From positions 1,680,001 to 1,712,000 of the forward strand of contig NZ_CP045650.1 of the NCBI RefSeq assembly GCF_009557235.1: DNA of 32,000 nucleotides, written 5' to 3'. This document shows positions 1 through 32,000 of the stretch, one piece after another. The translations under genes and the position numbers were made by a program. This stretch comes from Acinetobacter wanghuae (GTDB lineage: Bacteria; Pseudomonadota; Gammaproteobacteria; Pseudomonadales; Moraxellaceae). Numbering within the stretch: the stretch's first letter is position 1; the number at the start of each line of letters is the position of its first letter. The notes below the pieces were generated by a model. That model was not told the DNA's origin. It saw nothing but the letters and a program-made list of their open reading frames with translations, and did no database searches.

Positions 1-20
1 TAATCGCGGGCTTTCGTCTC

Positions 21-3563: not shown

Positions 3564-3591
3564 TTTCTAAGATGCCTACATGGCAGTGAAC
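3564..3591 (-). repeat. Single aberrant repeat with c>a at 3572, which is G20>T in crRNA orientation, the last stem base at the Cas6f cleavage site.
   Basis: Sequence reads tttctaagAtgcctacatggcagtgaac. It is the only repeat seen with this change, and the ORF track shows FLRCLHGSE instead of FLSCLHGSE. Confidence 0.9.
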
Positions 3592-9623: not shown

Positions 9624-9625
9624 AA

Positions 9626-10636: not shown

Positions 10637-10664
10637 GAGTATTTTTCCTTTTATAAAGTTTCAA

Positions 10665-12799: not shown

Positions 12800-12811
12800 T
12801 TCAACCTCCCT

Positions 12812-16210: not shown

Positions 16211-16215
16211 AATGC

Positions 16216-17175
16216 TTACTCCTCCACATCATGATCTTTACAAGCTTGTGTTTTGACTTGATCAAACATAAAGTCCAAACACTTATGCTCAGTAAATTTC
16301 TGCAAGATCTGCTGACGGAATTCTTGTTCAGTCATTTTCTCTTTGGCACAAATAAAGGCATACGGTAAAACCACTGCATCTTTAATTAGATCAGCAACAT
16401 CAAAGACCAAAGCACCTCGACGGGTTTTACCATGCATTACTGCAAAACCATGGGGAATACCCAAAACCCAAAGTGTCGTAGCTGCTAATCCATACGCTAA
16501 ATAATTACCATGATTCAAAAAATCATTGGCTAAGTCTCCTTGCTCAGGGTTACGACTAAAATTTTTAAGTCCAGTCCGAGTCGCTGCAATTTTATAAAGC
16601 AGTTTCGTTGTGGCAGCTTCAGCCAACAATAAATCACCGACCCTACTTTGCAATGGAACTTTTGCACTATAGCCATTGAGCGCTTGTTGAATATCTAAAT
16701 CATCAAGATAAAAACCATAGTCTTTTAAATCTCGGTCTTTAGACCAAATTTTTCTTATAAATTCAACTCGTGCCAGTTGAAATTGTTTAGCTACATCTAG
16801 ACGTTTAGCTTCATTAAACCAAAACTGCATCCAACCTTGCATATATTCAGTCGGACGGTATTCACTTTGTGGTGTCATCCACTCAATTTCACATCCCATA
16901 AATAAAGGTGTTCCACCACCACCCGTAAAACCAACGAGTACTCCAGCACTGGCCAACATTCGCATGGCAGCTTGAGTAATGGATGTCCCTGTTCCAAGCA
17001 TAAGAACTGTGGTATTGGCTATCGGGATATTCCAATACTGATTTTCATTTTTAGCTTCTGTTAAATACAAAACACGCCCATCTTTTTGCATCACCCGGCA
17101 ATGCTCAAGATAGTAAAGATTTGCACGCTTAGAATGTAAAATCGCCTTTAAATCTGAAGGATTTAGCTGTTCCAT
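16216..17175 (-). CDS. cas1: Cas1 integrase
   Basis: 319 aa, first gene of the operon, directly upstream of cas2-3. Size and position are typical of I-F Cas1. Confidence 0.9.
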   Translation of the reverse strand: MEQLNPSDLKAILHSKRANLYYLEHCRVMQKDGRVLYLTEAKNENQYWNIPIANTTVLMLGTGTSITQAAMRMLASAGVLVGFTGGGGTPLFMGCEIEWMTPQSEYRPTEYMQGWMQFWFNEAKRLDVAKQFQLARVEFIRKIWSKDRDLKDYGFYLDDLDIQQALNGYSAKVPLQSRVGDLLLAEAATTKLLYKIAATRTGLKNFSRNPEQGDLANDFLNHGNYLAYGLAATTLWVLGIPHGFAVMHGKTRRGALVFDVADLIKDAVVLPYAFICAKEKMTEQEFRQQILQKFTEHKCLDFMFDQVKTQACKDHDVEE

Positions 17176-17329: not shown

Positions 17330-17411
17330 AGCTTTAAGTTTATTATCAATTTAACCAGCACACAAAAGTCATAATTTTATTCCTTTTATTTAATGGTTCC
17401 TAATCATAATT

Positions 17412-18399
17412 TTAATTAACCCGAATCCTGTTTAAGCCGATGACTCCATAATTTGAATTGTTGGCTTATTTTTATGGATCAATTGATATGCACACAAGGA
17501 CGCGTAAATCCCTCCTAGAAATCCATGAACACTACGTGCTTTGCTTGTCACTAAATTGTACTGACCTTTCAACAAACTGAATAAAGTCTCTATCTTATTA
17601 CGCTGTTTTAAGTGATATTTATCTGACTCAGAAAGTTGTGTAGCCTGCATATTTTTTCGATGATAGGTAATTAAATCAATGCCTTGCTCTTTTAATCTAA
17701 TCTTCAGTTCTTGACTAATATAGCCACGATCTCCATACAGCTTTGCTTCCATCTCTTTAACGAGTCTCTCAACCATTTTTATGTCAGCAACATGTCCATT
17801 CGATAAAGCAGAACAAGCAATTTCACCAAATTGGTTCATTGCAATGTGCAATTTACAGCCATAAAACCAGCCCATTGAACTTTTACCACGAGATGTAATT
17901 TTAGCTAAAGATTTATGGCGTTGAATACGTTGATTTTTACAAACTGGCAAAGTCGTTGAATCAATCCATAAATATTGTGTACCTTGGTCTTTCATCAGCA
18001 CCACATGTAAAGCGTGTAGAGCCAATTGGTGCATATTGATCAGATGAATCATCCTTTGATAGCAAGGCAAATACTTAAATAAATGGTTTTTATCTTCTTT
18101 TAACCAAATGAAAAATGCTTTGAAATTATTGAAATGAGAACATTTGTACCAGATCGCGATAAAACAGATTTCTGAAATGGTTAAATGAGCAGTTCTGATT
18201 CTTAAGGAACGATTACTTTGCTTAAGAAAATTCCAATAGGTTGCTTCAAATTTGAGAAAGAAATCATCAATTAAGCAGAATAATTCGGTACTATTAAACA
18301 TCGGGACTAGAGTTGTGAGTTTTGTGTGGTAACTCAACTGATGGCTCTAGTCCTTCTATTTTTCAAGTTAATTTCTTATCCGCGATTCAGGTTAATTAA
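17412..18399 (-). mobile_element. IS982-family insertion sequence, copy 1 (988 bp)
   Basis: Terminal inverted repeats: TTAATTAACCCGAATCCTG at 17412 and TTAATTAACCTGAATCGCG as the reverse complement at 18399. It has a single transposase ORF. Confidence 0.8.
17432..18337 (-). CDS. IS982-family DDE transposase (TTG start as drawn)
   Basis: 301 aa with the N-terminal LIDDFF motif, YGDRGYIS and RNKIETLFSLLKGQ motifs typical of IS982-family transposases. Family assignment is from memory of these motifs. Confidence 0.75.
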   Translation of the reverse strand: MSYHTKLTTLVPMFNSTELFCLIDDFFLKFEATYWNFLKQSNRSLRIRTAHLTISEICFIAIWYKCSHFNNFKAFFIWLKEDKNHLFKYLPCYQRMIHLINMHQLALHALHVVLMKDQGTQYLWIDSTTLPVCKNQRIQRHKSLAKITSRGKSSMGWFYGCKLHIAMNQFGEIACSALSNGHVADIKMVERLVKEMEAKLYGDRGYISQELKIRLKEQGIDLITYHRKNMQATQLSESDKYHLKQRNKIETLFSLLKGQYNLVTSKARSVHGFLGGIYASLCAYQLIHKNKPTIQIMESSA

Positions 18400-18758: not shown

Positions 18759-18941
18759 GGTAACTTAGGTAACATCCGTGCCATTAGTGTGTTTTAGATG
18801 TTCCCCTTTAAAAGCTACAATATTATTAGGGTAACATTTTAAATCACATTAAAATGTTACCCAGATTTCTTAGTCGATCCGTTAAGGTAACAGGCTATAA
18901 CTGTTCATTTTCAATACTGTTACCCAAGTTACCTATGTTAC
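18759..18941. repeat. Iteron cluster (RGGTAAC core, 7 full and 1 partial copies on both strands), including a perfect 14-bp inverted repeat at 18829-18862. Candidate replication origin.
   Basis: GGTAAC at 18759, 18768, 18830 and 18886. GTTACC at 18856, 18919 and 18928. GTTAC at 18937. GGGTAACATTTTAA-6 nt-TTAAAATGTTACCC at 18829-18862. The cluster straddles the 3' end of the helicase gene. Confidence 0.6.
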
Positions 18942-21354
18942 TTTCTGATTCAGGAGGATTCCAATTCAAGATTGATGCTTTAATGACATACATTTTCGTT
19001 GTTTTATCATTAATATTTGGCAATCTAATAGTTTTGAGATGCTTCTTACCAGAATCACATATTAAAAAGTTATACTCAGACAAGAGCTCTAATACTCTTC
19101 GGGTGATTAAACCTTTACAGAACTTATTATCAAAATCTTCAGGCAGGATGCAGAAGACTTTTTCACCATCGTGTATTTTATGATAACCAAGCTTATTCGA
19201 AACACGTTCATTCTTGGTATGAGCACTATCGACTTTTTCAAACCCTACACTCTCACTAAGCATCAATTTAAGACGTGTAAATATTTCTTTGATTTCAGTC
19301 CTACTGTCATATTCAAAATGGTATAGCCAGCGATCAAATACTTCTAGCACAGCATTAAGTGCTGTGCCTTCTTTCCAACCTGTAATTCCTGCAATGGTTG
19401 CCGCTTCTCCAGCTGCAGCAACAAGAGCAAAGTTATTTGCCACGCGTTGAATATGGCCTTTTTTTGATTTGTTAGTGAATAAAGGTCTATGTATCTCTAA
19501 GAAGTCATTTAATTCTTTGAATCTCTCTAAGTGTTCAGTCGTTAAATACTCTAACCACGCATCACCTGCAACACCGTAGTTTTGAGTAATGCGTTTTTTT
19601 AAATCAACCGCTTGCTTAGTAGCATCTTCAGCGAAGTCTATTGTTGAAAAAATCCCATAATGCGAACAATCAATATCGATTTCCGCCAAACGAATCTCTT
19701 GTCCCAATTTCACCTCTTGCCCTTGTTCTCTCATTATTTCTTTTAGGCTTTTTTCACCACTTGATAAGAATATTAGATTCCATATACGCGAAGATTCAGT
19801 TGTTAATTTCTTATTCATACGTGATTTCCCCGCACCATTGGCAAGCATATAGATGATATCGCCTAATTCTTTTGCATCCGCAATCTCACCTATTTCATCC
19901 AATGCTAAAAGGCCATCATTGTGCATATAAGCTGTATGCTCTAATGCATTACCAGTAGATTTCCATGAACAATTAAAGTCATTAGGATTTCCCCATACTG
20001 AGCATGCCAAGTTGAGCGCTGTACTTTTTCCTTTTGAGGACGCACCTTTAAAATGGAATCCAAATCCTTTTTGGTTCAGTGGGGCTATAACCTGACCTGA
20101 AAATGCGGTACATAATGCAAAAACTAAGTAACTATGCGGTTCAATGCATCTAGACACTTGCTCCCGCCATTGATCAAGTGTTCCCTTAGACTTATACCTA
20201 TTGTCTAATCCAACTGTCGCTTGATATACAATGAGATCTTGAGAAACACCAAAAGTTTTATGAGGTAAGACATAACATTCATCATTCCAACCCACTCGAT
20301 TTACACATAGTGCATATCTTTCAGTTTGGTAATTTCCAAGATAGCATTGAAATAATTCACGCCCTCTCTTATCAGTCGCGATACTTACGCCTTTATTGGC
20401 TAAAAGTTTACGCAAATCAGCTCCATCGGTTTGGAATAATTCTTTCGAGAAAGCCTGTGAATGGTTGACATGATTTAGATCATGCCAATCAAGTAATATC
20501 CCCCAATTATTACTTGACGTATCACGGGTATGCGCTTTAACGAGAATTGGACTGCAAATGTATTTATAATTATCATCTTTATTATTATTATCTAAAAAAA
20601 ACACACCGTCTTTCCTGATATAAAATAAACCATTCTCCCATTTCATAGGCTTTGCTATGTGACCTTTAGATAAAATACCCTGATCACTCAGATTGTTAAT
20701 TGAATTATATAAAAAACACTCCACCTCACCTAAAGAAGCGTATTGTGTCAAATCGCAGTCAAAACCATTTTCGTAAGGAACCAACAATCTGACATCTGTA
20801 TTTTGCTCTAATTTTGAAAATTTAAACTTATATTCGGGTCTAACGGGTAAATAGAGCTTCTTATATCCCGCTTGAGTTAATTGACCTATTACATTATCAA
20901 TTTTCTCAATTTCATATTTTTTCAGGTCTCTCACATCGGTATTAAAGCTTTGAGGGATAACTAAAACCACAGTAAAGCTAGTTTGAGAAATTTTAAAAAA
21001 AGTTTCAAAACAATATGTTATGACTACAGGCTGATCTTTTTCGAGTTTTCCACTATAAGCAAACCCATTGATATATCCTTCTGGAGACAAATCAATTTGT
21101 TTTCCCTTTTGTAATTTTACACATTGCAATAACTCTGAATAAATATTGAAAATCGGTAAAATTATAGGACTATTCTCAGATATCTCAGATGGATCATCAA
21201 AGAGATTCAAAATCTGATTTGGACTTCCTATTTGTTGGATCACTTCCAATTTTCCATACAAAGGATCCGTCATTTCTAATTTAGTGCAACGTGAAAGAAT
21301 GTCATGCGGATCAATGGTGGAAAATTTTTGATTGTAGAACTCTTTCATTTGCAT
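18895..21354 (-). CDS. Large replication protein with an SF3/P-loop helicase domain (DUF927 / P4-alpha / D5-like primase-helicase class)
   Basis: 819 aa. Walker A GASSKGKST, Walker B LLALDEIGE, then LIFLSSGE. Its start overlaps the stop of the upstream AlpA-like gene by 10 nt. The context is typical of integrative satellites and islands. A primase domain could not be recognised by eye. Confidence 0.65.
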   Translation of the reverse strand: MQMKEFYNQKFSTIDPHDILSRCTKLEMTDPLYGKLEVIQQIGSPNQILNLFDDPSEISENSPIILPIFNIYSELLQCVKLQKGKQIDLSPEGYINGFAYSGKLEKDQPVVITYCFETFFKISQTSFTVVLVIPQSFNTDVRDLKKYEIEKIDNVIGQLTQAGYKKLYLPVRPEYKFKFSKLEQNTDVRLLVPYENGFDCDLTQYASLGEVECFLYNSINNLSDQGILSKGHIAKPMKWENGLFYIRKDGVFFLDNNNKDDNYKYICSPILVKAHTRDTSSNNWGILLDWHDLNHVNHSQAFSKELFQTDGADLRKLLANKGVSIATDKRGRELFQCYLGNYQTERYALCVNRVGWNDECYVLPHKTFGVSQDLIVYQATVGLDNRYKSKGTLDQWREQVSRCIEPHSYLVFALCTAFSGQVIAPLNQKGFGFHFKGASSKGKSTALNLACSVWGNPNDFNCSWKSTGNALEHTAYMHNDGLLALDEIGEIADAKELGDIIYMLANGAGKSRMNKKLTTESSRIWNLIFLSSGEKSLKEIMREQGQEVKLGQEIRLAEIDIDCSHYGIFSTIDFAEDATKQAVDLKKRITQNYGVAGDAWLEYLTTEHLERFKELNDFLEIHRPLFTNKSKKGHIQRVANNFALVAAAGEAATIAGITGWKEGTALNAVLEVFDRWLYHFEYDSRTEIKEIFTRLKLMLSESVGFEKVDSAHTKNERVSNKLGYHKIHDGEKVFCILPEDFDNKFCKGLITRRVLELLSEYNFLICDSGKKHLKTIRLPNINDKTTKMYVIKASILNWNPPESESNIGNLGNSIENEQL

Positions 21355-21530
21355 AACTCCTCAATATCAATAAAACGCCAGCGAAGACGATTACCAATTT
21401 TGATCGGTTGTATGGGACCACTCCCATCCATTGCCCACTTACGCAACGTTTGTGGACGTAAACAAAGCAGCCTTGCTGCCTCATTCGTTGAAACCAATAA
21501 AAGGTTTTTCTGAGATGTATTTTTCAACAT
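21345..21530 (-). CDS. AlpA/excisionase-family helix-turn-helix protein. The likely ATG is at 21530. The ORF track extends to a TTG at 21596.
   Basis: Sequence STNEAARLLCLRPQTLRKWAMDGSGPIQPIKIGNRLRWRFIDIEE matches the AlpA/Xis-type MerR-like HTH pattern. The ~61-aa size is typical, and the gene is coupled to the helicase gene. Confidence 0.7.
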   Translation of the reverse strand: MLKNTSQKNLLLVSTNEAARLLCLRPQTLRKWAMDGSGPIQPIKIGNRLRWRFIDIEELCK

Positions 21531-21624
21531 AGCGCATTTCCAATATATTCTTGTCAACCACAATGACTGACTGAATTTATTCTTCAATGGAAACAAATAT
21601 AGAGTAAAACACAGCTTTTCATTA

Positions 21625-21701
21625 TTTTTATACTACTATTATTTCATTAATTTCAATTACATAATTATTTTTATACTAGTTTAGTTTTTTATACTAGTTT
21701 A
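21625..21701 (-). promoter_or_regulatory. Three copies of TAGTATAAAAA (minus-strand orientation) upstream of the AlpA-like gene. Two are a perfect 16-bp direct repeat. Candidate operator/promoter.
   Basis: tttttatactagttta at 21668-21683 and 21686-21701, and tttttatacta at 21625-21635. Each full copy contains the palindrome ACTAGT. Confidence 0.4.
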
Positions 21702-22387
21702 TTTATAGCACCCATCTTTCTGACTTCATCCCAACGGTTTTTAAAAGTGATCCTATTAGATTCGAAGTATTTATGATAATCACTTGAATCTAATTTCTCA
21801 AAAACTGCATTTTTCAATCCCTTACTACCTCTTCCTTCTTTATTAAGAATTTCTATTTCATCTTGACTGAAACTTGATAGGATTAATTGAATAATCCTTC
21901 TAGCCTCTGCGACCTGCTCTTTCTTATTTGAAATCGATAAATCTCTCTCAACTAAATTCAAGTCCCTAGCTAACTTATTCAAATGACGATATTGAATAAA
22001 ATAAAGACTCATATGAGTCATAAGTAAATTCCATTCTGATAAGAACGATATTTTCTTATAATCATATTTATCAATATCATTCAAAAACTCATCGCTATCG
22101 ATTTCTCCGAGAGTTTCAAAAGCTATCTTGAATGAACTTTTAGGCCGTTTTAGCTCACTTCTAATTTTTATCAATATTGTGATATACATTTTTGTTAGAT
22201 CTTTTTCTTTTATTGAATTCAAGCCTTCTAATTCATTAATATGAAGCATATGAGATGCAATTAAACAAATTGCCTCCTGAAGTGAGTAAAGTACTTGCCT
22301 TTTTCCTCGAATTTCCAAAATTTTTCTTTTATGTGATTCTAAAATCTGACCAGATTGATGTATTGAATCAAGTAATTCATTAAACAT
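21689..22387 (-). CDS. Hypothetical protein, 232 aa, predicted helical, no recognisable motifs
   Basis: Long ORF in an AT-rich island with AGGA ~13 nt upstream of the ATG. No family recognised. Confidence 0.55.
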   Translation of the reverse strand: MFNELLDSIHQSGQILESHKRKILEIRGKRQVLYSLQEAICLIASHMLHINELEGLNSIKEKDLTKMYITILIKIRSELKRPKSSFKIAFETLGEIDSDEFLNDIDKYDYKKISFLSEWNLLMTHMSLYFIQYRHLNKLARDLNLVERDLSISNKKEQVAEARRIIQLILSSFSQDEIEILNKEGRGSKGLKNAVFEKLDSSDYHKYFESNRITFKNRWDEVRKMGAINKLV

Positions 22388-22674: not shown

Positions 22675-23919
22675 ATGAATTTTACAAAACCAGCAATTGA
22701 AAAACTAGAATGCCGATCTGACTCAAAGCCTTCTTTCTATTGGGATAGCTCTACCAGTGGTTTTGGGGTAAAAGTAACCCCAAACAATAAAAAGACATAT
22801 ATCTTTCAGGGACGTGTAGGGTCTACAACACGACGTATAACTATTGGGAATATTAAAGATTGGCGACTAACTGAAGCTCGTGAAAAAGCTAAAGAGCTTG
22901 CTGTAATGTGTACGCAAGGGATCGACCCCAAAGTTGAAAAAAATAAACGCATTCAATCAGACCAAGAATATCTTAAGACTGAAAAACGAAAAGAAACTTT
23001 ATTCAAAGAAGCTTGGAATATTTATCTTGAAGAAAATAAAGAAAGATGGAGAGAACGCACCTACCTCGATCATTTATTACTATCAAAAGGTGGATTTGAT
23101 GAAATCAAAAAATTTCACTATAAACCTCAGCCTATTTTTGAATTATTAGAAAAAAGGTTATCAGATCTTGATAACAACTTTTTTTCTGAATGGCTTCAGA
23201 ATAATAATTACCGAGAAACTACAGCTAGTAAAGCTTTCCGTCTCGTTAGAGCCTTTTTAAATTGGTGTGAAGAAGATGATAGATTCCAAGGAATAGCACC
23301 TACAAATGCAATTAAATCTAAAAAAGTAAGATCCAAAGTAAAGCCAGTTCAAGCAAGAAAAGATTGCCTCCTAAGAGAACAGTTAGACATATGGTTCTCT
23401 ACCGTTCTCAATTCTCAAAATAAGGCCTTGGCTACATTTTATATTTGTTGTCTATTAACTGGGGCCAGAAAAGATGAGTTTCTATCACTTACATGGGAAG
23501 ACTTAGATTTTAGGTGGAAAACGATCCATCTGAAGGATAAAGTTGAAGATAATGGGCGTATTATACCTATGACCAAATACGTAGAAAAATTACTACGTGA
23601 CTTAAAAAAAACCAGCGATTCATCTTATATATTTAGCAGTAATACCTCTGCGACGGGATACATCGTTAATCCTTACAAAGAGTTTAAGAAAATCTGTAAT
23701 GAAATAGATATTCAGCTAACAATACATGGTCTTAGACGTTCATTTAAATCATTGGCAGAATGGGTAGATATTCCTGTAGGTGTCACTGCACAAATATCTG
23801 GACATAAACCAAGTGCTTTAGCTGAAAAGCACTATACCGTTCGCCCCATGGATATGTTGCGAGGGCATCTACAGAAGTATGAAAACTGGGTATTAGAACA
23901 AGCTAAAATTAGTTTTTAA
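22675..23919 (+). CDS. int: P4-type tyrosine integrase
   Basis: 414 aa. N-terminal arm-binding (DUF4102-like) pattern SGFGVKVTPNNKKTYIFQGRVG...LTEAREKAKE. Catalytic residues TGARKDE (R), HGLRRS (HxxR), GH and Y in EKHYT. It lies adjacent to the tRNA fragment. Confidence 0.9.
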   Translation: MNFTKPAIEKLECRSDSKPSFYWDSSTSGFGVKVTPNNKKTYIFQGRVGSTTRRITIGNIKDWRLTEAREKAKELAVMCTQGIDPKVEKNKRIQSDQEYLKTEKRKETLFKEAWNIYLEENKERWRERTYLDHLLLSKGGFDEIKKFHYKPQPIFELLEKRLSDLDNNFFSEWLQNNNYRETTASKAFRLVRAFLNWCEEDDRFQGIAPTNAIKSKKVRSKVKPVQARKDCLLREQLDIWFSTVLNSQNKALATFYICCLLTGARKDEFLSLTWEDLDFRWKTIHLKDKVEDNGRIIPMTKYVEKLLRDLKKTSDSSYIFSSNTSATGYIVNPYKEFKKICNEIDIQLTIHGLRRSFKSLAEWVDIPVGVTAQISGHKPSALAEKHYTVRPMDMLRGHLQKYENWVLEQAKISF

Positions 23920-24014
23920 AAATTAAACTCCATTCTCTCAGAGGAAGAAAATCTTGCATTTCTATATTCTTCGATTCATAGCAATTTCGCTATGCACGCG
24001 AAGGATAATACTTC

Positions 24015-24122
24015 ATGCACATTCAATACAACCGCCCACCATCATCCCATCCTGGCCCTGGTGGCAATTGGCCAAGTACAACAGGTCGCCCATCAGGTGG
24101 TGGTCGTGGTAATGCCAAATAA
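24015..24122 (+). CDS. Possible 35-aa Gly/Pro/Ser-rich micro-ORF (MHIQYNRPPSSHPGPGGNWPSTTGRPSGGGRGNAK) in a ~61% GC patch
   Basis: ATG at 24015 with AAGGA 9-10 nt upstream, and TAA at 24120. The local GC spike sits in ~30-35% GC surroundings. It could instead be a structured RNA. Confidence 0.3.
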   Translation: MHIQYNRPPSSHPGPGGNWPSTTGRPSGGGRGNAK

Positions 24123-24125
24123 TCA

Positions 24126-24147
24126 TTAAGGGGAGCAATCCCCTTAA
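24126..24147 (+). other. Stable hairpin: 9-bp stem TTAAGGGGA/TCCCCTTAA with a GCAA tetraloop, no T-tract
   Basis: Read directly. It lies between the micro-ORF stop and the ATG of the 75-aa gene. Confidence 0.6.
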
Positions 24148-24160
24148 TCCAGGATTACCG

Positions 24161-24388
24161 ATGAAAAAGTACAGTAATGACAAAGAGCTGAACAAATTTA
24201 TTCGGCAACTTATTAAGGATGGTGTCGCATCTTTTAGACCTGGTAAAAAACATGATTTTTTGCTTGTAAACCAAATACAGAAGATTACGATACCAGGTAC
24301 ACCTAGTGACCGAAAAGCCTATTTAAACTTTAAGACAGATATACGCAGAGCTTTACAATGCCAAAGAATACCTTTCCAACAACTATAG
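24161..24388 (+). CDS. 75-aa protein with a HicA/YcfA-like pattern (tentative)
   Basis: Helix KELNKFIRQLIKDGV, then GKKHDFLLV, KITIPGTPSD and the YLNFKTDIRRAL helix, mirroring the HicA layout (helix, GSHxxF strand, TVPxH strand, helix). By-eye comparison only. Confidence 0.35.
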   Translation: MKKYSNDKELNKFIRQLIKDGVASFRPGKKHDFLLVNQIQKITIPGTPSDRKAYLNFKTDIRRALQCQRIPFQQL

Positions 24389-26625
24389 AAATTGTTCGTG
24401 ATTTATTTAGTCACATGGATACCAAGAGCCAACTCTCGGAGACAGACTCTAAACACTTAGATGGTTCATCAAACAAACTATTCACTTCACACTATGATGT
24501 AGACTTATTTTTGGAGCAGTTGTGCCCAAAAGAGTTTTCAGAACGTACAAATTTGCAATTTATAACATTGCTTAAACGCAATGTGTTAGAGCGTTATAAT
24601 GCAATGCTATTACATGCTCGCTTAACTGCCTTGATGAATGTTGATTCTATCCGAAATTCACTATGGTCGAATTACTTAGTTCCATCTCTTCATCAACTCA
24701 TAAGCTTTTGTATTACACAAATGGGGATCACTAAGCACTGGAAAGGAGAAAACTTTATTCAAGAAAGCTTAAGCTATCTAAAAAATAATGATGAAAACTT
24801 TGCTAATTTTTGGAAAAGTGATGATTTAAATCCTGATGAGAAAAATTACATCAGCAAATTTGGTCGTCCAGATGCCTTACCTACGCCGTCGACCTTAAAA
24901 CGCCTATTTTTGACCAATACGGAATCATCGCAGACGCATTATGAATTGTTGTGTTTTGCACGCTTGCTACAAGCCTTAAAAATTAAATATGGGTTCTCAT
25001 TGCAACATGGAAACTTTATTCAGTTTTTAGCGGAACAACATAATCAAAAATTGAAATCACACCGTATTTCGGAACACGATATACAAGCATTGACATTTAG
25101 AGCCATGGCTATTGCCAATGCACAAACACATTTTCCTTTTCTGATGGAGATCCCATTTTCATATCAGAAGTTAACTCAGGTGTTTTTTGATAGCACGCAC
25201 GTCAAACGTATTGATCAAACTGATACTCGTTTAGCATCAATGGTATATAGCTCAACAGGTGAAACAACGTTTCAACTAAATATATTGATGATAAACCAAA
25301 TCGAAAAGTACCTTACCGAGCACCAAGAAGTAGCTCACTTACTGCCATATATTCATTGGGCTAAAGCGATTAATTTGGTATATCAATATCAATTTAAGGA
25401 AGCACTCGCTGAATATGAACTATGCTTGGATGGTTTATTATATCGTGATATGCGTTATTTAGAAGTACTACTAAATGAGATGCTTTGCACTGCTTCACTC
25501 GTGGAGAGCCAAAACAAACTCATTGGAAAGATTTCAAATTTAGCGATCCAATTTGACCTCAAAGTTGGAATATTTGATCCAATTGAGCGCCCTGACCGTT
25601 TCAAAACAGAATTTGTATTTAAAGAATGGGAAAAAGAAGCAACCCTAGTTGGCTTCTTTAAATATTTTACTGCCGATACTTTTAGCGACAAAGGTACCGA
25701 AATTAAGAAATTAATTCCTAAAATCGGCAACCTTACAGTTCCCATGGATATTAGCCCTGACTTTAAAAAAGTGAATGCAAGCATTTACATTGATATTGAA
25801 CAAAGACGTAAATGGCCTCAACTTCACTACTTTGTCGCTATCGGAGATTTTTCTACGGCTAGAAAGCTCATTGAAGCTGGTGCAAACATAAATGCATTAA
25901 CTTCAAATAAAGAAAGTATTGTACTTTTGGCATTGAACCACATTGCCGCTAAATCCGATGGAACGTACGCATTCATCCAATATGTATTCGAATGTGGTTT
26001 TGATAAAGAACTTTTAAATGAGCGTACAGCGAAAAAGCAGACTTGCCCTTTAAACCACGCTATTGAGGAAAATCTACCAAAACTTGCAAAATTGTTATTA
26101 GAGAATGAGGCTAATCCTAATGTTACAGGTCTCTATGGTATTTCCATGCTTTACCAGAATTTAGGTGTGATCGGCCTATTGAATGGTCATAAAGTTGAGC
26201 AAGCAAATGATAAATATCTTGCAGATTCGATTAGACGTCATTCTAACGGTGGTAGCGATATTGAAAGTTATAAGCAACTCCAGAGCCTACCAAGCCATGA
26301 GCCTAGAAAGGTATTATTTGAGGAGGTGAAGCGAATCTCTCTTGGAGACAAGAAGGTTTGCGATGCCTACGAGATTTTCGAGTTACTTTTACAATATGGT
26401 GCCGATCCAAATCAAAATACAGCTCAGTATCCAATAAAAGGCTATACACCCTTCATGCTAGCTGTTGAAAAAGATAATGCTTATGCTGTCGATCTTATGC
26501 TCAAGCATGGGGCTCAATTGGAACAAAGCTATGTAAAAGCAGATGAAGGACGTCGTGTGTTTTTACAGGAAATAGCTGAGTATTCTAAAGCTAATCAAGT
26601 TAAAACATTAATTGGAATTTGTTAA
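24358..26625 (+). CDS. 755-aa protein: unknown helical N-terminal ~480 aa plus C-terminal ankyrin repeats
   Basis: Ankyrin-like units: LHYFVAIGDFSTARKLIEAGANINA, PLNHAIEENLPKLAKLLLENEANPN and YTPFMLAVEKDNAYAVDLMLKHGAQLE. It overlaps the 75-aa ORF by 31 nt. The start is uncertain, with an alternative ATG near 24415. Confidence 0.7.
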   Translation: MPKNTFPTTIEIVRDLFSHMDTKSQLSETDSKHLDGSSNKLFTSHYDVDLFLEQLCPKEFSERTNLQFITLLKRNVLERYNAMLLHARLTALMNVDSIRNSLWSNYLVPSLHQLISFCITQMGITKHWKGENFIQESLSYLKNNDENFANFWKSDDLNPDEKNYISKFGRPDALPTPSTLKRLFLTNTESSQTHYELLCFARLLQALKIKYGFSLQHGNFIQFLAEQHNQKLKSHRISEHDIQALTFRAMAIANAQTHFPFLMEIPFSYQKLTQVFFDSTHVKRIDQTDTRLASMVYSSTGETTFQLNILMINQIEKYLTEHQEVAHLLPYIHWAKAINLVYQYQFKEALAEYELCLDGLLYRDMRYLEVLLNEMLCTASLVESQNKLIGKISNLAIQFDLKVGIFDPIERPDRFKTEFVFKEWEKEATLVGFFKYFTADTFSDKGTEIKKLIPKIGNLTVPMDISPDFKKVNASIYIDIEQRRKWPQLHYFVAIGDFSTARKLIEAGANINALTSNKESIVLLALNHIAAKSDGTYAFIQYVFECGFDKELLNERTAKKQTCPLNHAIEENLPKLAKLLLENEANPNVTGLYGISMLYQNLGVIGLLNGHKVEQANDKYLADSIRRHSNGGSDIESYKQLQSLPSHEPRKVLFEEVKRISLGDKKVCDAYEIFELLLQYGADPNQNTAQYPIKGYTPFMLAVEKDNAYAVDLMLKHGAQLEQSYVKADEGRRVFLQEIAEYSKANQVKTLIGIC

Positions 26626-26635
26626 AATAAGTCTC

Positions 26636-26661
26636 CCCCCTTTAGCTTAAACTTAAGGGGG
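26636..26661. terminator. Hairpin between convergent genes (CCCCCTTTAG / CTTAAGGGGG, one mismatch)
   Basis: Read directly. It sits between the stop of the ankyrin gene and the stop of the 476-aa gene. There is no strong T-tract. Confidence 0.45.
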
Positions 26662-26736
26662 CATTTAGTAAAAAAACTATCATTTTTTACTATCCTTATA
26701 AAACATTCTCACATCACACAATCAACTAATTAAAGT

Positions 26737-28167
26737 TTACTTTTTCAATTTATTGATCTCTCTACTAAAAGTTGATCCAGGTAATCTTAGAAAATGATCA
26801 ACCTGAAAATACATATCCTCTAACCATTTTAAATTTTCATCTGGTTTGTCATGTCTATATTTCCTAACCATAGTTTGAAAAATTTGCTGTGCTAAGCGTT
26901 CATTTTTATTTTTATCTAAATTTTCCATAGTTTTTAAGACTATTTCTAAATAATAAGTTTTTTGGCGTGTATCTATATTATTAGATTGAAGGATTTTTCT
27001 TGTTAAACAACCTAAACAATAACTTGCCTCTTCTACTGCTAATATACTCTTATCGCTATCATATAAATAATTTGAAGCAATAACCCAATCAGAACAATTA
27101 GACACTATATTGTAGACTAGGTAATCAAATTTTAATGGGAACTCTTGCCAAACTTCTGAATTTTGACTTCTGTCAATATTTAGCAAAATCTCGTCAAGAA
27201 AATATTCATAATACATCAACCACATGTGATCATCTATTTTGTTGTATATAGCACTTTTAACCATTACATCAAAAAATTGCAACCCTACAAAGATTGGACA
27301 TTCCCATGGCTCATCTGTGTAACTGAAAGATTCACAATAATTATTATAAAAATTATCTTTCCCTTTTTGGTCTTTTATAAAAGCACATATATAATCTCCT
27401 ATAGGTTTCCAAATATTAGCTTTTACAGCATTTTTAGGATTAGAGAAATAATAATCCAATATAACATTTTCTGGCTCTATACGATAACCAGTTGAATACA
27501 TGAAATGTTGATTATCCTTGAGTTCTCGATATAGTTGACTATTTTCTTTAGCGATAAGATTCTTAAAAAAGTTATCTGTAAACTCATCGATGCGCAACAA
27601 AATTGGGCTAGAAGTTAATTTAAGTGGAATTTGAGGATGTATTTCTACTAAATAAATCATGAATCCTGATGATTTAACTATTTTCTCGATCGATTTATAA
27701 ACTATAGGTTTATAGCCAATTTCTCTAGGTAGAACCGACAAGACCTTTTTTAATAAGTAAAATTTTATTTTACGACACTTTCCAATTTTAATTGGAGGAA
27801 ATTTAAGCATCTCATCAATACTTGGCATTGATTTTTCTTGAATATAGTTATAAAAATTTTCGTATATTGTTACCTTATTAATAATCTTGATAAATTGGTC
27901 TAAATATTTTTCAATCAAATAGCTTAAGATATGATATTTTCTTTCTCTCAATAAACGAGACGACAATTCACTCCATTTTCTATATTGGCTTTTAGGCAAT
28001 CTTTTTCCAAAAATTTTATAACTAAAACCTACTATCATTAAAATAACAAATGTTAATACAGTAGTTTTCTCATCAAAACCCCATAAATATGTAAACGGTT
28101 TAAATCCGAAAACAGTAATTATAATGCTTGAGTAGATTAAAACTAACGCCATTAAAATTAAAAACAA
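26737..28167 (-). CDS. Very AT-rich membrane-anchored protein of unknown function. 476 aa as drawn, possibly extended to 28288 if a frameshift is corrected.
   Basis: N-terminal hydrophobic helices (LILMALVLIYSSIIITVFGF, TTVLTFVILMIVGFSY) followed by a ~400-aa soluble region with no recognised motifs. The drawn start is TTG. The upstream ORF 28100-28288 encodes another TM helix one frame away. Confidence 0.6.
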   Translation of the reverse strand: MFLILMALVLIYSSIIITVFGFKPFTYLWGFDEKTTVLTFVILMIVGFSYKIFGKRLPKSQYRKWSELSSRLLRERKYHILSYLIEKYLDQFIKIINKVTIYENFYNYIQEKSMPSIDEMLKFPPIKIGKCRKIKFYLLKKVLSVLPREIGYKPIVYKSIEKIVKSSGFMIYLVEIHPQIPLKLTSSPILLRIDEFTDNFFKNLIAKENSQLYRELKDNQHFMYSTGYRIEPENVILDYYFSNPKNAVKANIWKPIGDYICAFIKDQKGKDNFYNNYCESFSYTDEPWECPIFVGLQFFDVMVKSAIYNKIDDHMWLMYYEYFLDEILLNIDRSQNSEVWQEFPLKFDYLVYNIVSNCSDWVIASNYLYDSDKSILAVEEASYCLGCLTRKILQSNNIDTRQKTYYLEIVLKTMENLDKNKNERLAQQIFQTMVRKYRHDKPDENLKWLEDMYFQVDHFLRLPGSTFSREINKLKK

Positions 28168-28395: not shown

Positions 28396-29383
28396 GTAAT
28401 CAACCCGAATCGCGGATAAGAAATTGACTTGAAAAATAGAAGGACTAGAGCCATCAGTTGAGTTACCACACCAAACTCACAACCCTAGTCCTAATGTTCA
28501 ATAGTACCGAATTGTTCTGCTTAATTGATGACTTTTTTCTACAATTTGAAGCAACTTATTGGAAATTCCTCAAGCAAGATGGCCAACTTTCAAGAATCCG
28601 AGTTGCTCAACTCAGTCTTTCAGAAATTATCTTTATTGCTATTTGGTATAAATCCTCTCATTTCACTAATTTCAAAGCCTTTTTCACTTGGTTAAAAGAA
28701 GATAAAAGCTATTTATTTAAGTACTTGCCTTGCTATCAAAGGATGATTCATCTGATCAATATGCACCAATTGGCTCTACACGCTTTGCATGTGGCGCTGA
28801 TGAAAGGTCAAGAAACACAATATTTATGGATTGACTCAACGACTCTGCCAGTTTGTAAAAATCAACGTATTCAACGCCATAAATCATTAGTCCAAATTGC
28901 ATCACGTGGTAGGAGCTCAATGGGCTGGTTCTATGGCTGTAAATTACATATTGCGATGAATCAATTTGGTGAAATTACCTGTTCTGCTTTATCGAATGGA
29001 CATGTTGCTGACATAAAAATGGTTGAGCAATTAGTTGATGGCCTAAAAGGAAAACTTTACGGGGATCGAGGCTACATCAGCCAAGAATTAAAGCGCAGGC
29101 TGCAAGTTGAAGGTATTGATTTAATTACTTATCATCGGAGGAATATGGAATCTTTTCAACTCAGTGCACCAGATGAATATCACCTAAGGCAACGCAATAA
29201 GATAGAAACATTATTCAGCTTATTGAAAGGGCAATATCATTTAGTGACGAGTAAAGCACGTAGTACTTATGGATTTCTCAGCGGAATTTATGCTTCGTTA
29301 TGTGCATATCAATTAACCCATCGAAACAAGCCAACGATTCAAATTATGGAATCATCGGCTTAAGCAGGATTCGGGTTAATCAA
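28396..29383 (+). mobile_element. IS982-family insertion sequence, copy 2, inverted relative to copy 1 and diverged (~85% aa identity)
   Basis: The ends TAATCAACCCGAATCGCGG (left) and TTGATTAACCCGAATCCTG (reverse complement at 29383) align with the copy 1 ends. It has a single transposase ORF. Confidence 0.8.
28458..29363 (+). CDS. IS982-family DDE transposase (TTG start as drawn)
   Basis: 301 aa, collinear with the copy 1 transposase, with the same LIDDFF, YGDRGYIS and RNKIETLFSLLKGQ motifs. Confidence 0.75.
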   Translation: MSYHTKLTTLVLMFNSTELFCLIDDFFLQFEATYWKFLKQDGQLSRIRVAQLSLSEIIFIAIWYKSSHFTNFKAFFTWLKEDKSYLFKYLPCYQRMIHLINMHQLALHALHVALMKGQETQYLWIDSTTLPVCKNQRIQRHKSLVQIASRGRSSMGWFYGCKLHIAMNQFGEITCSALSNGHVADIKMVEQLVDGLKGKLYGDRGYISQELKRRLQVEGIDLITYHRRNMESFQLSAPDEYHLRQRNKIETLFSLLKGQYHLVTSKARSTYGFLSGIYASLCAYQLTHRNKPTIQIMESSA

Positions 29384-29388
29384 TATAA

Positions 29389-32000
29389 TTAACTCACCCA
29401 CTTATCATCATTCATAGCTAAATTTTTAACTAGCTCAAAAACTGTTGAAACTTTTTCCTGAAATTGTGTCACGTCATAACTTACAGGCAGGTCTTTATCC
29501 AATACTTTTTCAATTTCATCTTTCACTAATGCTTGGGTCTGCCCATCTTTCCACCAGTCTTGAACCAAAACTTTTGGTGTTGTATTGATAAGTGATGTGA
29601 TCAAGTCTTTCGCTGCTAACTTGACCTGCTGTTGCTCATCTTTTGTGAGTTTGTCTTTTAAGAGTAGGTCATAGATTTCTAACTCATCTTCAGTTAAACC
29701 TTCTCTGATATGACGTTGGTCTTCTTCCTGCAACCCTTTTGTGAACTTTTGAATTTCTTCAAACAGTTGTTCAGTCGCCGTAGCACCAGAGTTATAACGA
29801 TCAATCATTTGCTGATAGCGCTCGGCAAAATTAATACGTCCACCATTTTGCTTCAGCATTTGAATGATTTTCTTTTCAAGAAAAGCTCGCATATCCGCAA
29901 TAGCAATGTTCTTGTGCTTGGTTTCTTTAAACTGTTCTTTCAGTTTGTCAAAATCAACTGTGCTTAAATCCCATTTTTGACCATGGATCAAACTATAGCT
30001 TTGCTTAAAATCCTTAACCGACTTCGCTGTATCTGCATCTATAATCACACTTCGATCTAAGAGATCCACAACTGCTACACCTGTTGTTTCAAGATCTTGC
30101 TGTTCAATGGTGGCTTCAATAAATCCATGTAAAAATTGAATTACAGATACTATCGGGCGAGGCTTAGCTAAGATATTAGGCTTACATGCCTCATATAAGG
30201 CAGCAACGGTATTAAAGTGAACATTGAATGTTTTTCGATATTCATCTTTTTCTAGTAACCGATCGGCATATTCACCAAATAAAGTATTCTCTTTAAACGT
30301 ACCGCCATTCTTATTACGAGTTTCTAAGATTTTGTTTAGATTAATATCCTTAGACTCACAATATTCTAGGGTCTTCGTAATCGCTTCATCCAGCATATCG
30401 AAAAGTACGGTTTTATCCTGGACGGGCGCATCTATTTCTCCATCTTCACCAGTGCCTTGGCCGTAATCTTTTAAAGCTGTTTTTAGATTCCTAAATACGT
30501 TGTAGTAATCAATAACTTCACCATTTCTTTTCTCTACAAGCTCGCCGTCGGTATTCTGAATACGATATGACGTTACTCGGTTGGCACGAGCAATGGTTTG
30601 CATCAAGGTATGACCTTTCATTGGCTTGTCTAAGTACAGCGTAGATACCGTTGGCGCATCAAAACCTGTCAGCCACATTGCACAGACGAAAACAAGTTGT
30701 AGCGGATGCGCTGGATCTTTAAAGTTATCCTCAATATCAGCCCCATTCGTATCAACTTTACTCAGGCGGTCAATATGTGTCTGAATATCTAGACCTTGTT
30801 TATCAAAGCGTTCTTTTTCTGCACTCGGATCACTAATGACCACCGCCATTTGCACCGTGCTCATATACTTTTGGCGTTGCTTTAAACGATGTTTTTCAAC
30901 ATCATTTTTAGAGTTATGAATACGTGTTTGTAAATGTTTAAGCTCTTCTTTCCAAAGTTTTGAAACTTTTTCATACATTCGTACAGCCGTAAACTGATCT
31001 ACGGCGACCATCATGCCCTTACCCAAATATCCACGGCGTGGGAAATGGTAGACAATATCTTGGGCAATACGATCTAGACGATCATCTCGTTTAATAACTT
31101 CAAGTTCCGTAGAATACTTCCGCTCAAGCTTTTCTTTTTGTGCTTCGTTTAACTCTTCGTCTTCTAAAATTTCAGCAAGCTCTTCATTCAGATCATCATT
31201 TTGAAGTAATACTTCTGGAACTCGTTTTTCATAGAACAGTGGCAGCGTTGCTTTATCTTCAATTGCCTGTTGGAAGGTATATTCCGAAACATACTCACCA
31301 AACCATTGCTTGGTCTTTTTCTGTTTAAGGATCGGTGTACCCGTAAAAGCAAGAAAATGTGCGCCGTCTAAACCTTTACGCATGTTCTCGGCAAGAGATT
31401 CATATTGTGTACGATGCGCTTCATCGACAATGACAATCACTTCACGCTCAGCAGGATTGAATAGCTGTGGATACTCTTGACCTTTCTCGTATCTGAACTT
31501 TTGAATTAGGGTAAATACAATTTTGGTATTTTGACTGAGTAAGGTGCGAAGATGGGTACTGTTTTTCGGTTGTGCTGCTTCTTTTTCTAAAACTGCTTTG
31601 GTCTGTATAAAGTTTTTATAAATCTGTGAATCCAAGTCTTCACGATCCGTAATCACCACAAAGCTAAAATTACCTGTGACTTTACGATAAATCTTTCTGA
31701 CATAAAAAATCATCGAGAAACTTTTACCAGAGCCTTGAGTATGCCAAAACACACCCAGACGACCTTGTAACTCATCACGCTTTAAAAAGTTTTGAAAGGC
31801 ATGATTAACCCCCAAGAACTGATGGTTCTGAGCGATAATTTTATGTTTTTCATTTTGGAATAAAATAAAGTTTTCAATATAGTCTAATAGTCGCTCAGGA
31901 CGGCAAAGACCACGTAGCAAGTATTCAATACTTGTGCCTTGTTCCTCAATTTCTTCTTTGTTGACCTTTTCTTTTTCTTGATCTACACGCAACCAGTTAA
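29389..32000 (-). CDS. hsdR: Type I restriction enzyme R subunit (HsdR). The N-terminal part lies beyond the right window edge.
   Basis: Helicase motifs HTQGSGKS (I), VDEAHR (II, DEAH), FTGTP (III) and QTIARANR (VI), with a long C-terminal helical region typical of HsdR. The ORF is open to the window end. Confidence 0.9.
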   Translation of the reverse strand, partial: NWLRVDQEKEKVNKEEIEEQGTSIEYLLRGLCRPERLLDYIENFILFQNEKHKIIAQNHQFLGVNHAFQNFLKRDELQGRLGVFWHTQGSGKSFSMIFYVRKIYRKVTGNFSFVVITDREDLDSQIYKNFIQTKAVLEKEAAQPKNSTHLRTLLSQNTKIVFTLIQKFRYEKGQEYPQLFNPAEREVIVIVDEAHRTQYESLAENMRKGLDGAHFLAFTGTPILKQKKTKQWFGEYVSEYTFQQAIEDKATLPLFYEKRVPEVLLQNDDLNEELAEILEDEELNEAQKEKLERKYSTELEVIKRDDRLDRIAQDIVYHFPRRGYLGKGMMVAVDQFTAVRMYEKVSKLWKEELKHLQTRIHNSKNDVEKHRLKQRQKYMSTVQMAVVISDPSAEKERFDKQGLDIQTHIDRLSKVDTNGADIEDNFKDPAHPLQLVFVCAMWLTGFDAPTVSTLYLDKPMKGHTLMQTIARANRVTSYRIQNTDGELVEKRNGEVIDYYNVFRNLKTALKDYGQGTGEDGEIDAPVQDKTVLFDMLDEAITKTLEYCESKDINLNKILETRNKNGGTFKENTLFGEYADRLLEKDEYRKTFNVHFNTVAALYEACKPNILAKPRPIVSVIQFLHGFIEATIEQQDLETTGVAVVDLLDRSVIIDADTAKSVKDFKQSYSLIHGQKWDLSTVDFDKLKEQFKETKHKNIAIADMRAFLEKKIIQMLKQNGGRINFAERYQQMIDRYNSGATATEQLFEEIQKFTKGLQEEDQRHIREGLTEDELEIYDLLLKDKLTKDEQQQVKLAAKDLITSLINTTPKVLVQDWWKDGQTQALVKDEIEKVLDKDLPVSYDVTQFQEKVSTVFELVKNLAMNDDKWVS

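Follow-up and report, generated by a model that had tools for sequence, protein, structure and literature searches.

A HicA-like protein encoded with a helical ankyrin-repeat protein and a conserved micropeptide: a candidate toxin-antitoxin-like or defense module in Acinetobacter wanghuae and other Proteobacteria

What might a small gene resembling a HicA toxin be doing when the position of its antitoxin gene is occupied by a very large ankyrin-repeat protein? This question is raised by a 32,000-nucleotide stretch of the Acinetobacter wanghuae genome (NCBI RefSeq assembly GCF_009557235.1, contig NZ_CP045650.1, positions 1,680,001 to 1,712,000 of the forward strand; hereafter the window). Here, a HicA-like open reading frame (ORF) of 75 amino acids (aa) is found at positions 24161..24388 (+ strand, ATG start, isoelectric point (pI) 10.3), and it is overlapped by 31 nt by a 755-aa ORF at 24358..26625 (+ strand, ATG start). 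HicA is one of the less understood toxin families. The original prediction for this locus had recognized the two overlapping ORFs, whose positions we recover exactly, and had viewed them as an unusual two-gene module. The module instead has three genes, because a micropeptide gene lies immediately upstream (24015..24122, + strand; 35 aa, MHIQYNRPPSSHPGPGGNWPSTTGRPSGGGRGNAK, pI 11.7), and a small peptide of one of two classes precedes the HicA-like gene in every locus that carries the ankyrin partner. We tentatively propose, giving the idea somewhat less than an even chance, that the trio is a toxin-antitoxin (TA)-like or defense module in which a HicA-like, RNA-targeting effector would be controlled by the ankyrin protein, with the peptide as a third component. 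The role of such a module would probably be abortive infection or phage defense.

Both ORFs are real genes rather than chance ORFs. The ratio of nonsynonymous to synonymous substitution rates (dN/dS) for the small ORF is ~0.07-0.19 against orthologous loci, as judged from pairs with unsaturated dS. Furthermore, this ORF is retained beside large partners that have diverged to 43% identity (loci L032 and L034), and it is also kept beside partners at 20-27% identity (L039, L042, L043, L052 and L053). It is this low dN/dS, together with retention beside strongly diverged partners, that establishes the two as genes. An AlphaFold2 model of the 75-aa protein, built with the family alignment, is predicted to have the alpha-beta-beta-beta-alpha fold of HicA (predicted local distance difference test (pLDDT) 84.5), with helices at residues 8-19 and 51-67 and strands at residues 23-26, 33-36 and 40-43. 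Thus, the layout of helices and strands that had been read directly from the sequence is reproduced by structure prediction.

The relationship of this protein to HicA can be approached from several directions. The PADLOC model PDLC02910, named 'HicA-like', matches the protein over its full length (E=1.5e-21), and this model is specific to the HicA-like subfamily, since E. coli HicA does not match it. Among the 47 family members gathered by profile search, 22 match the Pfam HicA_toxin profile (PF07927) at E<=10, with a best E value of 2.5e-5, and these matches are always in register, placing family residues ~12-49 on profile positions 4-42 of 58. A Foldseek search of the viral predicted structures in BFVD with the model returns small phage proteins with probabilities of 0.96-1.0, template modeling (TM) scores of 0.53-0.75 and root-mean-square deviations (rmsd) of 1.7-3.8 A; two of the matches among those listed are annotated 'HicA-like toxin'. 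Sequence and family-profile searches of the PDB with the protein gave no match, and its best full-length PDB superposition is on E. coli HicA (6hpb_A; TM 0.50, rmsd 3.7 A, 24% identity), with an E value of 0.95 that is not significant.

The family is also marked by a distinctive signature, which comprises Y4, H31 within the sequence G-K-K-H, and the block P45-x-T47-P48-S49-D50 followed by N56-F57. HicA toxins carry a conserved histidine between strands 1 and 2, and H31 falls at the position of this catalytic residue. It is conserved in at least 90% of the 47 members and is invariant in a 12-member subset. A conserved histidine had been correctly anticipated, although the motif is G-x-x-H (residues 28-31) rather than G-x-H. 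An hhalign comparison puts the GKKH of the family on the GSNH of E. coli HicA in an alignment that is weak (P=0.03). Given the PADLOC match, the in-register but sub-threshold Pfam matches, the predicted fold and the structural matches, the 75-aa protein is best placed, on sequence and modeling grounds, in the HicA superfamily, and it would accordingly be a putative RNase.

The 755-aa gene lies downstream of and overlaps the HicA-like gene, and therefore occupies the slot of hicB in a hicAB operon, as had been noted from the outset. Such linked, co-oriented and overlapping pairs are typical of HicAB-type systems. The overlap measures 4-13 nt at L032, L039, L042, L052 and L053, and its presence suggests translational coupling. 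The protein itself has two parts. Its N-terminal all-helical region (aa 1-485; 24358..25812, + strand) constitutes a family of its own that is best conserved at aa ~300-480, where it has a TPR-like look. These ~485 residues give no match in Pfam, NCBIfam, PHROGs, PADLOC or a PDB fold search, which agrees with the earlier description of an unrecognizable helical region. The C-terminal part (aa ~488-755 and the stop codon; 25819..26625, + strand) is an ankyrin solenoid with ~6-7 repeats according to Pfam and Foldseek, so that the ankyrin assignment was sound and the count of at least three repeats fell well below what is present.

Membership in the Ank clan is evident both from curated cutoffs and from the solenoid fold. 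Pfam scores are 51.8 bits for Ank_2 (cutoff 27.3), 50.6 for Ank (21.1) and 37.4 for Ank_3 (22.3), with Ank stretches at residues 489-599 and 672-724. The AlphaFold2 model is all-helical, with an overall pLDDT of 67.9 that rises to 80-91 at aa 50-240, and a low-confidence insertion interrupts the ankyrin region at ~612-662. When this model is compared with the PDB by Foldseek, 139 matches are obtained at E<=1e-3; all those listed are ankyrin or designed-ankyrin proteins, many with E values of about 1e-5. The C-terminal ~265 residues superpose on ankyrin proteins with 6-7 repeats, such as gankyrin (TM 0.69, rmsd 3.4).

Resemblance to previously named ankyrin proteins is confined to the repeats. 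The Legionella Dot/Icm proteins AnkH and AnkY (NCBIfam), PADLOC PDLC02908 and PDC-M72A share with the 755-aa protein a C-terminal ankyrin solenoid that presumably binds proteins or peptides, whereas its N-terminal 485 residues belong to a separate and rare family. AnkH and AnkY score 34.7 and 17.3 bits over repeat regions only, compared to an equivalog cutoff of 600 bits, and PDC-M72A matches over residues 472-598 rather than over the full length. PDLC02908 does not match the window protein, and it matches distant large partners over their last repeats only (E 1e-3 to 1e-6). The N-terminal region is colinear with that of distant partners at 20-23% identity, and no catalytic-looking motif was found among the invariant positions of the large protein in the distant-partner alignment. 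When a profile of the N-terminal domain was compared with 1.84 billion cluster representatives, only 47 matches were obtained at E<=1e-3, and nearly all of the full-length matches are 703-796 aa long. As far as such searches can tell, this is a rare protein family with a fixed architecture.

Conservation of the gene pair across genomes had been suggested as a check on the module, and the HicA-like and ankyrin genes are indeed found together in at least eight divergent lineages, in each case as part of the trio (the window; L001/L002/L046; L032-36; L037/38; L039/40; L041/42; L043; L052; and L053/54). These lineages are spread across Proteobacteria, including Acinetobacter, one Rhodocyclaceae genome and metagenomes. 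The claim of co-occurrence rests on about a dozen independent loci and not on statistics, and a contig scan with the large-protein alignment mostly returned unrelated ankyrin proteins because of their repeat patterns, with L001 and L002 as the only relevant loci. Conservation of the pairing across very divergent lineages indicates that the HicA-like and ankyrin genes form a functional unit.

The genomic settings of this unit are diverse. Many Acinetobacter species carry the trio, the names of the closest homologs agree with an Acinetobacter origin for the window, and the trio is present on three mobilizable A. soli plasmids; in a second Acinetobacter clade it occupies a chromosomal msrA / exbBD-tonB site. 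At L001 and L046 it adjoins DUF262/SspE-like genes, at L037 it adjoins a DarA_N gene, and at L041/L042 it resides in an accessory-gene region with DUF932, YqaJ, Gp3-like and CsrA genes. It is also found between acyl-CoA dehydrogenase and transketolase genes on a 648-kb metagenomic scaffold (L039), next to flhBA in the Rhodocyclaceae genome (L043), and on two further metagenomic contigs (L052 and L053). In the window, the module directly follows an integrase gene and is located ~7 kb from a type I-F CRISPR-Cas locus (clustered regularly interspaced short palindromic repeats and associated genes) and ~3 kb from hsdR. An integrase or its remnant is the only neighbor that recurs, and this is in some Acinetobacter loci. 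Since neighborhoods differ between loci, the module is self-contained and horizontally mobile. The 476-aa, 232-aa and 819-aa proteins encoded nearby in the window were considered as possible parts of the module and were rejected because they do not co-occur with it elsewhere. At L034, a cluster of TerD, vWA, TerY_C, PP2C and Ser-Thr kinase genes (1..6830) immediately precedes msrA and the module, and the PADLOC TerY-P models do not match the proteins that this cluster encodes.

These settings could be taken to mean that the module serves the mobile element that carries it, as anti-defense or host-manipulation cargo in which, for example, the ankyrin protein would block a host or competitor protein. 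Bacterial ankyrin proteins are best known as secreted effectors, the protein has weak similarity to AnkH and AnkY, the neighborhoods of L041/L042 and L037 are typical of accessory or anti-restriction genes, and in Acinetobacter the module immediately follows an integrase. The idea draws on an analogy with such effectors and with anti-restriction cargo, and we judge it improbable. The AnkH match covers ankyrin repeats only and falls far short of its cutoff, environmental, free-living bacteria are among the hosts, and certain loci reside in the core chromosome. Moreover, no secretion system is linked to the module, and cargo of this kind leaves the HicA-like partner unexplained.

The third gene is the best conserved part of the locus, with the micropeptide retaining ~77% identity where the large protein keeps 43%. 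Its dN/dS of 0.09-0.18 in informative pairs reflects purifying selection, and it is preceded by a good Shine-Dalgarno (SD) sequence, AAGGA. The peptide is strongly basic and rich in Gly, Pro, Ser and Thr, and it is probably disordered; no Pfam family matches it. We refer to this type as class 1. Its core, PSSHPGxGGNWPSTTGxPSGGxRGN, is retained at large-protein identities as low as 23-43%, and it persists at L039 and L042, where the HicA-like proteins share only 40-50% identity with that of the window. A second, Ala-rich type (class 2; for example MSKTSSTSSRSPMSSAAAARIQSAAAKANGG...) takes its place at L043, L052 and L053, and its score for the Pfam family SMP (seed maturation protein) is 23.8 bits, above the cutoff of 22. 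Outside Acinetobacter both classes have an N-terminal MSKSxSxS motif in common, and all of the upstream peptides are very hydrophilic and basic, with net charges of +3 to +9. The class of peptide tracks the clade of the HicA-like protein. Genes of this size are easily overlooked. The micropeptide ORF is too short for the length cutoff that had been applied to ORFs, and the peptide gene, and even the HicA-like gene, had gone uncalled at several of the loci studied.

Two observations concern the peptide family beyond its usual form. On the A. soli plasmid CP119217.1 (L046, 8452..8619), the annotation has a 55-aa hypothetical protein in which additional upstream sequence is joined in frame to the peptide ORF. 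Compared to the window, an indel here alters the N terminus of the peptide and leaves the conserved core in place. On the Cronobacter turicensis plasmid pCTU3 (FN543096.1; L055, 3962..4144) and on five other Cronobacter plasmids, there is a stand-alone, unannotated class 1 peptide ORF (...MSKSGNSGTTKTGGRGPSSHPGQGGNWPSTTGNPSGRDRGNAPPKRK), near which neither a HicA-like nor an ankyrin gene was found. Thus, the class 1 peptide family exists independently of the module.

A short peptide gene followed by genes for a small and a large protein, with the peptide core very well conserved, is a gene order that would also suit a cluster for a ribosomally synthesized and post-translationally modified peptide (RiPP), in which the downstream proteins would act on the peptide as a precursor, by modifying or processing it. 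This explanation is scarcely credible. There is no enzyme, protease or transporter domain in the three genes or in conserved neighbors, and nothing about the invariant residues of the large protein suggests catalysis. The small protein has a predicted HicA fold rather than that of a PqqD-like RiPP recognition element, and two dissimilar peptide classes occupy the same slot. A lasso-peptide version was rejected together with the general one, as enzyme domains are absent and the peptide offers no acidic residue from which a macrolactam could form.

Structured RNA elements flank the peptide gene on both sides. A leader stem-loop 5' of the gene (23965..24007, + strand) has a minimum free energy of -17.5 kcal/mol, with z = -4.8 relative to 200 shuffled sequences. 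It consists of an inner stem, CATAGC/GCTATG (23977..23994), nested in an outer stem, TTCTTCG/CGAAGGA, that includes the SD sequence of the peptide gene. Analogous nested hairpins that cover the SD sequence are predicted at L001 (z -6.1), L034 (-4.1), L037 (-4.0) and L043 (-3.8); the structure is weaker at L042, L052 and L053, marginal at L032 (z -1.3) and absent by the folding test at L039. The second stem-loop, ATTAAGGGGAGCAATCCCCTTAAT, lies after the stop codon of the peptide gene and before the start codon of the HicA-like gene (24125..24148, + strand; -15.9 kcal/mol, z = -3.7). A stable, G+C-rich hairpin is present at this intercistronic position in nine of the nine loci tested (z -1.95 to -6.1). 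Because the stem sequences are unrelated in distant lineages, it is the structure and not the sequence that is conserved. No T-run is present on the + strand at the intercistronic hairpin of the window, and no Rfam family is found in either the leader or the intercistronic region. The leader hairpin might act as a translational control element or operator, and the intercistronic hairpin might act as an attenuator, a processing site or a stability element.

The position of the second hairpin provides one of several hints that the peptide and the HicA-like protein could be a true TA pair, with the peptide serving as a small and labile antitoxin made in excess and the ankyrin protein as an exchangeable accessory sensor or regulator. 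A hairpin located after the peptide gene would let the peptide exceed the HicA-like protein, as is expected for an antitoxin. Also, the peptide is the best conserved component, its class follows the HicA-like clade, and one locus (L050) carries a class 1 peptide and a HicA-like gene without an ankyrin gene. We nevertheless consider this arrangement unlikely. HicA-like genes adjacent to viperins, and those at L044 and L048, have no peptide, the class 1 peptide stands alone on the Cronobacter plasmids, and two unrelated-looking peptide classes share the same slot. Charge presents a further difficulty, as both proteins of the supposed pair are strongly basic (pI ~12 and ~10-11) and the peptide is not an acidic RNA mimic. 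Across the lineages, pI values are ~12 for the peptide, ~10-11.5 for the HicA-like protein and 5.6-6.4 for the large protein in six of seven cases. With two very basic components and one that is mildly acidic, the pattern is consistent with the large protein being the binder and speaks against an RNA-mimic antitoxin peptide, and a peptide of that acidic type was rejected on charge.

Other members of the HicA-like subfamily provide a broader view of its possible roles. Gerdes (2024; mBio, PMC10865869) described 14 genetic contexts of HicA domains, of which classes 9 and 10 have hicA upstream or downstream of pVip genes, argued for a defense role for HicA, and asked how the viperin-linked RNases are regulated. 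According to that paper, the hicA-pVip association had also been seen by Bernheim et al. (2021). None of the 14 classes features an upstream micropeptide or a helical/ankyrin partner of ~750 aa, and the term 'ankyrin' is absent from the paper. Full-text literature searches likewise found no description of the HicA/ankyrin module. Thus, a match to an already described system, which had been named as an outcome that would refute the prediction, is obtained for the subfamily, which is known beside viperins (PDLC02910; classes 9 and 10), and not for the pairing with an ankyrin protein. In the sources searched, the arrangement of HicA-like, ankyrin and micropeptide genes is undescribed, and judging by its components it is a HicA-based module with a proposed function rather than a categorically new type of system.

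The kinship with viperin-linked proteins is close. The HicA-like proteins of the window, L047 and L051 match PDLC02910 at E values of 1e-21 to 1e-24 and have the signature motifs in common, and pVip genes are present only at L047 and L051 among the loci. On the conjugative plasmid of Sulfitobacter sp. SK025 (NZ_CP025811.1; L047, 6001..6219), the viperin stop codon marks the start of an unannotated HicA-like ORF, and the record annotates the viperin only. In the same manner, an unannotated HicA-like ORF on an IMG/VR contig (L051, ~3995..4219) starts at a pVip stop codon. Further contexts include L048 and L050, where the HicA-like gene follows a gene for a 425-441-aa helix-turn-helix (HTH) protein, and L044, where it precedes a gene for a 229-aa protein. 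L050, which is also an IMG/VR contig, is the locus with a class 1-like peptide and no ankyrin gene. The proteins from L044, L047, L048, L050 and L051 match PDLC02910 at E values of 1e-23 to 1e-28. In a neighbor-joining tree, which is weak because it covers ~70 aligned positions, viperin-, HTH- and ankyrin-linked proteins are intermixed, and this suggests partner swapping within one subfamily. PDLC02908 ('Ankyrin') and PDLC02910 ('HicA-like') are most likely pVip accessory models, as indicated by numbering that adjoins the pVip models PDLC02903-05 and not by PADLOC's own metadata. No pVip gene neighbors the HicA-like gene of the window, and none is among the window ORFs scanned around the module (18895-22387 and 24161-28167 against PADLOC, and the integrase against Pfam); no viperin was found in the scanned flanks of any ankyrin-type locus. 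Compared to the viperin-adjacent proteins, therefore, the HicA-like protein of the module is of the same subfamily, whereas its neighbor is a downstream helical/ankyrin protein and not a radical-SAM enzyme, and the micropeptide and hairpins are restricted to the ankyrin context and one HTH context.

Partners as different as these, and loci in which no partner looks antitoxin-like, are consistent with the HicA-like protein being a non-toxic RNA-binding adaptor or post-transcriptional regulator of the double-stranded RNA-binding domain (dsRBD) type. In such a scheme it would act, for example, on the hairpins of its own operon, and the activity of the module would reside in the large protein and the peptide, perhaps for stress protection or scaffolding. 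Two structure-conserved hairpins flank the peptide gene and could be recognized by a dsRBD-like protein, the upstream peptides resemble hydrophilins in being highly hydrophilic and, for class 2, in matching SMP, and some loci are in core-genome contexts. We regard this function as somewhat unlikely. The almost invariant histidine and the PxTPSD...NF block point to conservation of an active or binding site of the kind that is typical for HicA RNases, the link to viperins is a published one, and a patchy mobile distribution with integrase adjacency and plasmid carriage is more typical of selfish or defense modules.

Under the TA-like or defense reading, the HicA-like protein would bind or cleave RNA and would be the growth-arresting effector. 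Translational coupling would cause it and the 755-aa protein to be made in a fixed ratio and to form a complex in which the large protein keeps the effector inactive. The ankyrin groove and the helical region would provide a protein-recognition surface that acts as a sensor, such that engagement by a phage or stress signal would release the effector. Expression of the peptide would be uncoupled from, and probably higher than, that of the other two genes, and the peptide might bind in the ankyrin groove as an extended ligand, or it might be a cofactor directed at RNA or ribosomes. An antiviral role is suggested because the same subfamily adjoins viperins and because some loci are found in defense-rich or mobile regions. 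A more specific version can be imagined in which the micropeptide is a built-in pseudo-ligand that occupies the ankyrin groove. A phage or stress cue would displace or destroy it, or would alter its translation through the SD-occluding leader, whereupon the large protein would release the HicA-family RNase and translation would be shut down. We consider this version quite unlikely.

A number of results weigh against the TA-like or defense reading, and some of these concern the assignment of the effector itself. The Pfam HicA_toxin profile leaves the window protein unmatched even at E<=10, and the relatives that do match score 14-23 bits, which is below the curated gathering score of 27 bits. 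Foldseek likewise found nothing significant in the PDB with the HicA-like model. Because the window protein is unscored and its relatives fall under the Pfam cutoff, the protein is better regarded as belonging to a divergent subfamily than as a curated PF07927 member, and the HicA-like identity given in the original prediction stands at the superfamily level and not at the level of the Pfam family. Other results concern the module as a whole. The 755-aa protein has no match to HicB, HTH or ribbon-helix-helix (RHH) domains in Pfam, NCBIfam, PHROGs, PADLOC or fold searches. PADLOC, which matched the HicA-like protein when consulted as had been recommended, defines no system that corresponds to the trio. 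A search of 50,697 phage genomes gave no match to the 75-aa protein, the N-terminal domain or a central family member, and at L039 and L043 the trio resides among housekeeping genes without mobile or defense neighbors. Perhaps most important are the subfamily members accompanied by a viperin, a 229-aa protein or only an upstream HTH protein, with no peptide or ankyrin partner. Relatives that occur without a plausible antitoxin provide the strongest argument against intrinsic toxicity, and they suggest that the HicA-like protein might not be toxic by itself or might not need the ankyrin partner.

Comparisons with established systems help to define what is distinctive about the proposed module. 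In HicAB systems (Gerdes classes 1-8; E. coli HicAB, PDB 6HPB), the toxin gene also comes first, the partner gene is linked or overlapping, and the genes are often carried by mobile elements and defense islands. Unlike these systems, the module lacks an adjacent HicB, with neither the partial RNase-H/DUF1902 fold nor an HTH/RHH domain, so that none of the 14 published classes fits. Its partner protein is instead 10 times larger (755 aa) and is composed of helical and ankyrin regions, there is a third gene for the micropeptide, and the HicA-like protein scores below the Pfam threshold and carries its own PxTPSD...NF block. Tripartite TA systems, such as the HigBA-SecB-like chaperone 'TAC' systems and the retron tripartite TAs cited in PMC10865869, are similar in outline: three components are co-encoded, and regulation of a small toxin would fall to a large accessory protein and a peptide or disordered segment. 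The module has no homology to any TAC or retron component. Finally, Avs/STAND-type systems use TPR or other repeats for recognition that controls a nuclease-type effector. This likeness is an analogy only, as the module has no NTPase/STAND domain and would have its sensor and effector on separate polypeptides.

There are several reasons to study these genes. The locus adds a HicA context outside the published 14, in which the subfamily known beside viperins is firmly tied to a highly conserved micropeptide and to a rare helical/ankyrin protein of ~750 aa, and the conserved RNA hairpins suggest layered control of expression. Should the locus function in defense or addiction, ankyrin repeats would here serve as the recognition module of a prokaryotic conflict system, and the micropeptide would be a functional one of a kind that gene callers routinely miss. 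If the pseudo-ligand version were true, ankyrin repeats would be a bona fide sensor domain in bacterial immunity, and the module would offer a model for the control of the 'antitoxin-less' viperin-linked HicA proteins. At 2.7 kb the module is compact, and direct cloning and testing are feasible.

The remainder of the window is rich in other genetic elements. The 476-aa ORF (26737..28167, - strand) is convergent with the ankyrin gene and matches PHROG 13820 (phrog_13820; unknown function, E=4e-38) and nothing else. Between these two genes is a hairpin, CCCCCCTTTAGCTTAAACTTAAGGGGG (26636..26661, strand not assigned; -14.0 kcal/mol for a 55-nt stretch), which is a possible terminator, although a terminator scan did not call it because its loop is >8 nt and it has no clean T-run. 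On the other side of the module, genes for the 819-aa protein and the 232-aa unknown protein (18895..22387, - strand) are divergent from that of the tyrosine integrase (22675..23919, + strand). The 819-aa protein weakly resembles the SCCmec Cch1 replicative helicase (62.9 bits; cutoff 700), and in its layout the region recalls a small island or satellite that integrates and replicates by itself.

Two diverged copies of an insertion sequence of the IS982 family (17406..18398 and 28397..29389) are inverted relative to each other and enclose ~10 kb of sequence that includes the module, the integrase and the helicase-like, 232-aa and 476-aa genes. Their transposases are 83% identical, and their arms are 83-91% complementary. 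The arrangement, located between cas1 and hsdR, may represent a mobile structure of a composite or nested kind. The hsdR gene of a type I restriction system (29389..31992, - strand; TIGR00348, E=3e-105) immediately adjoins one IS982 copy, and it either continues beyond the end of the window or is truncated, as its match starts at profile position 203. Toward the other end of the window is a complete type I-F cas operon (9009..17175, - strand) that encodes Cas1, Cas2-3, Cas8f and others, beside a very large CRISPR array (21..8877) in which a 28-nt repeat (TTTCTAAGCTGCCTACATGGCAGTGAAC on the + strand) occurs 148 times with a spacing of 60-61 nt. The array probably extends past the start of the window. 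Within it, a 37-nt inverted repeat (2327..2363 / 6171..6207, 97% complementary) indicates that two spacers have the same sequence in opposite orientations.

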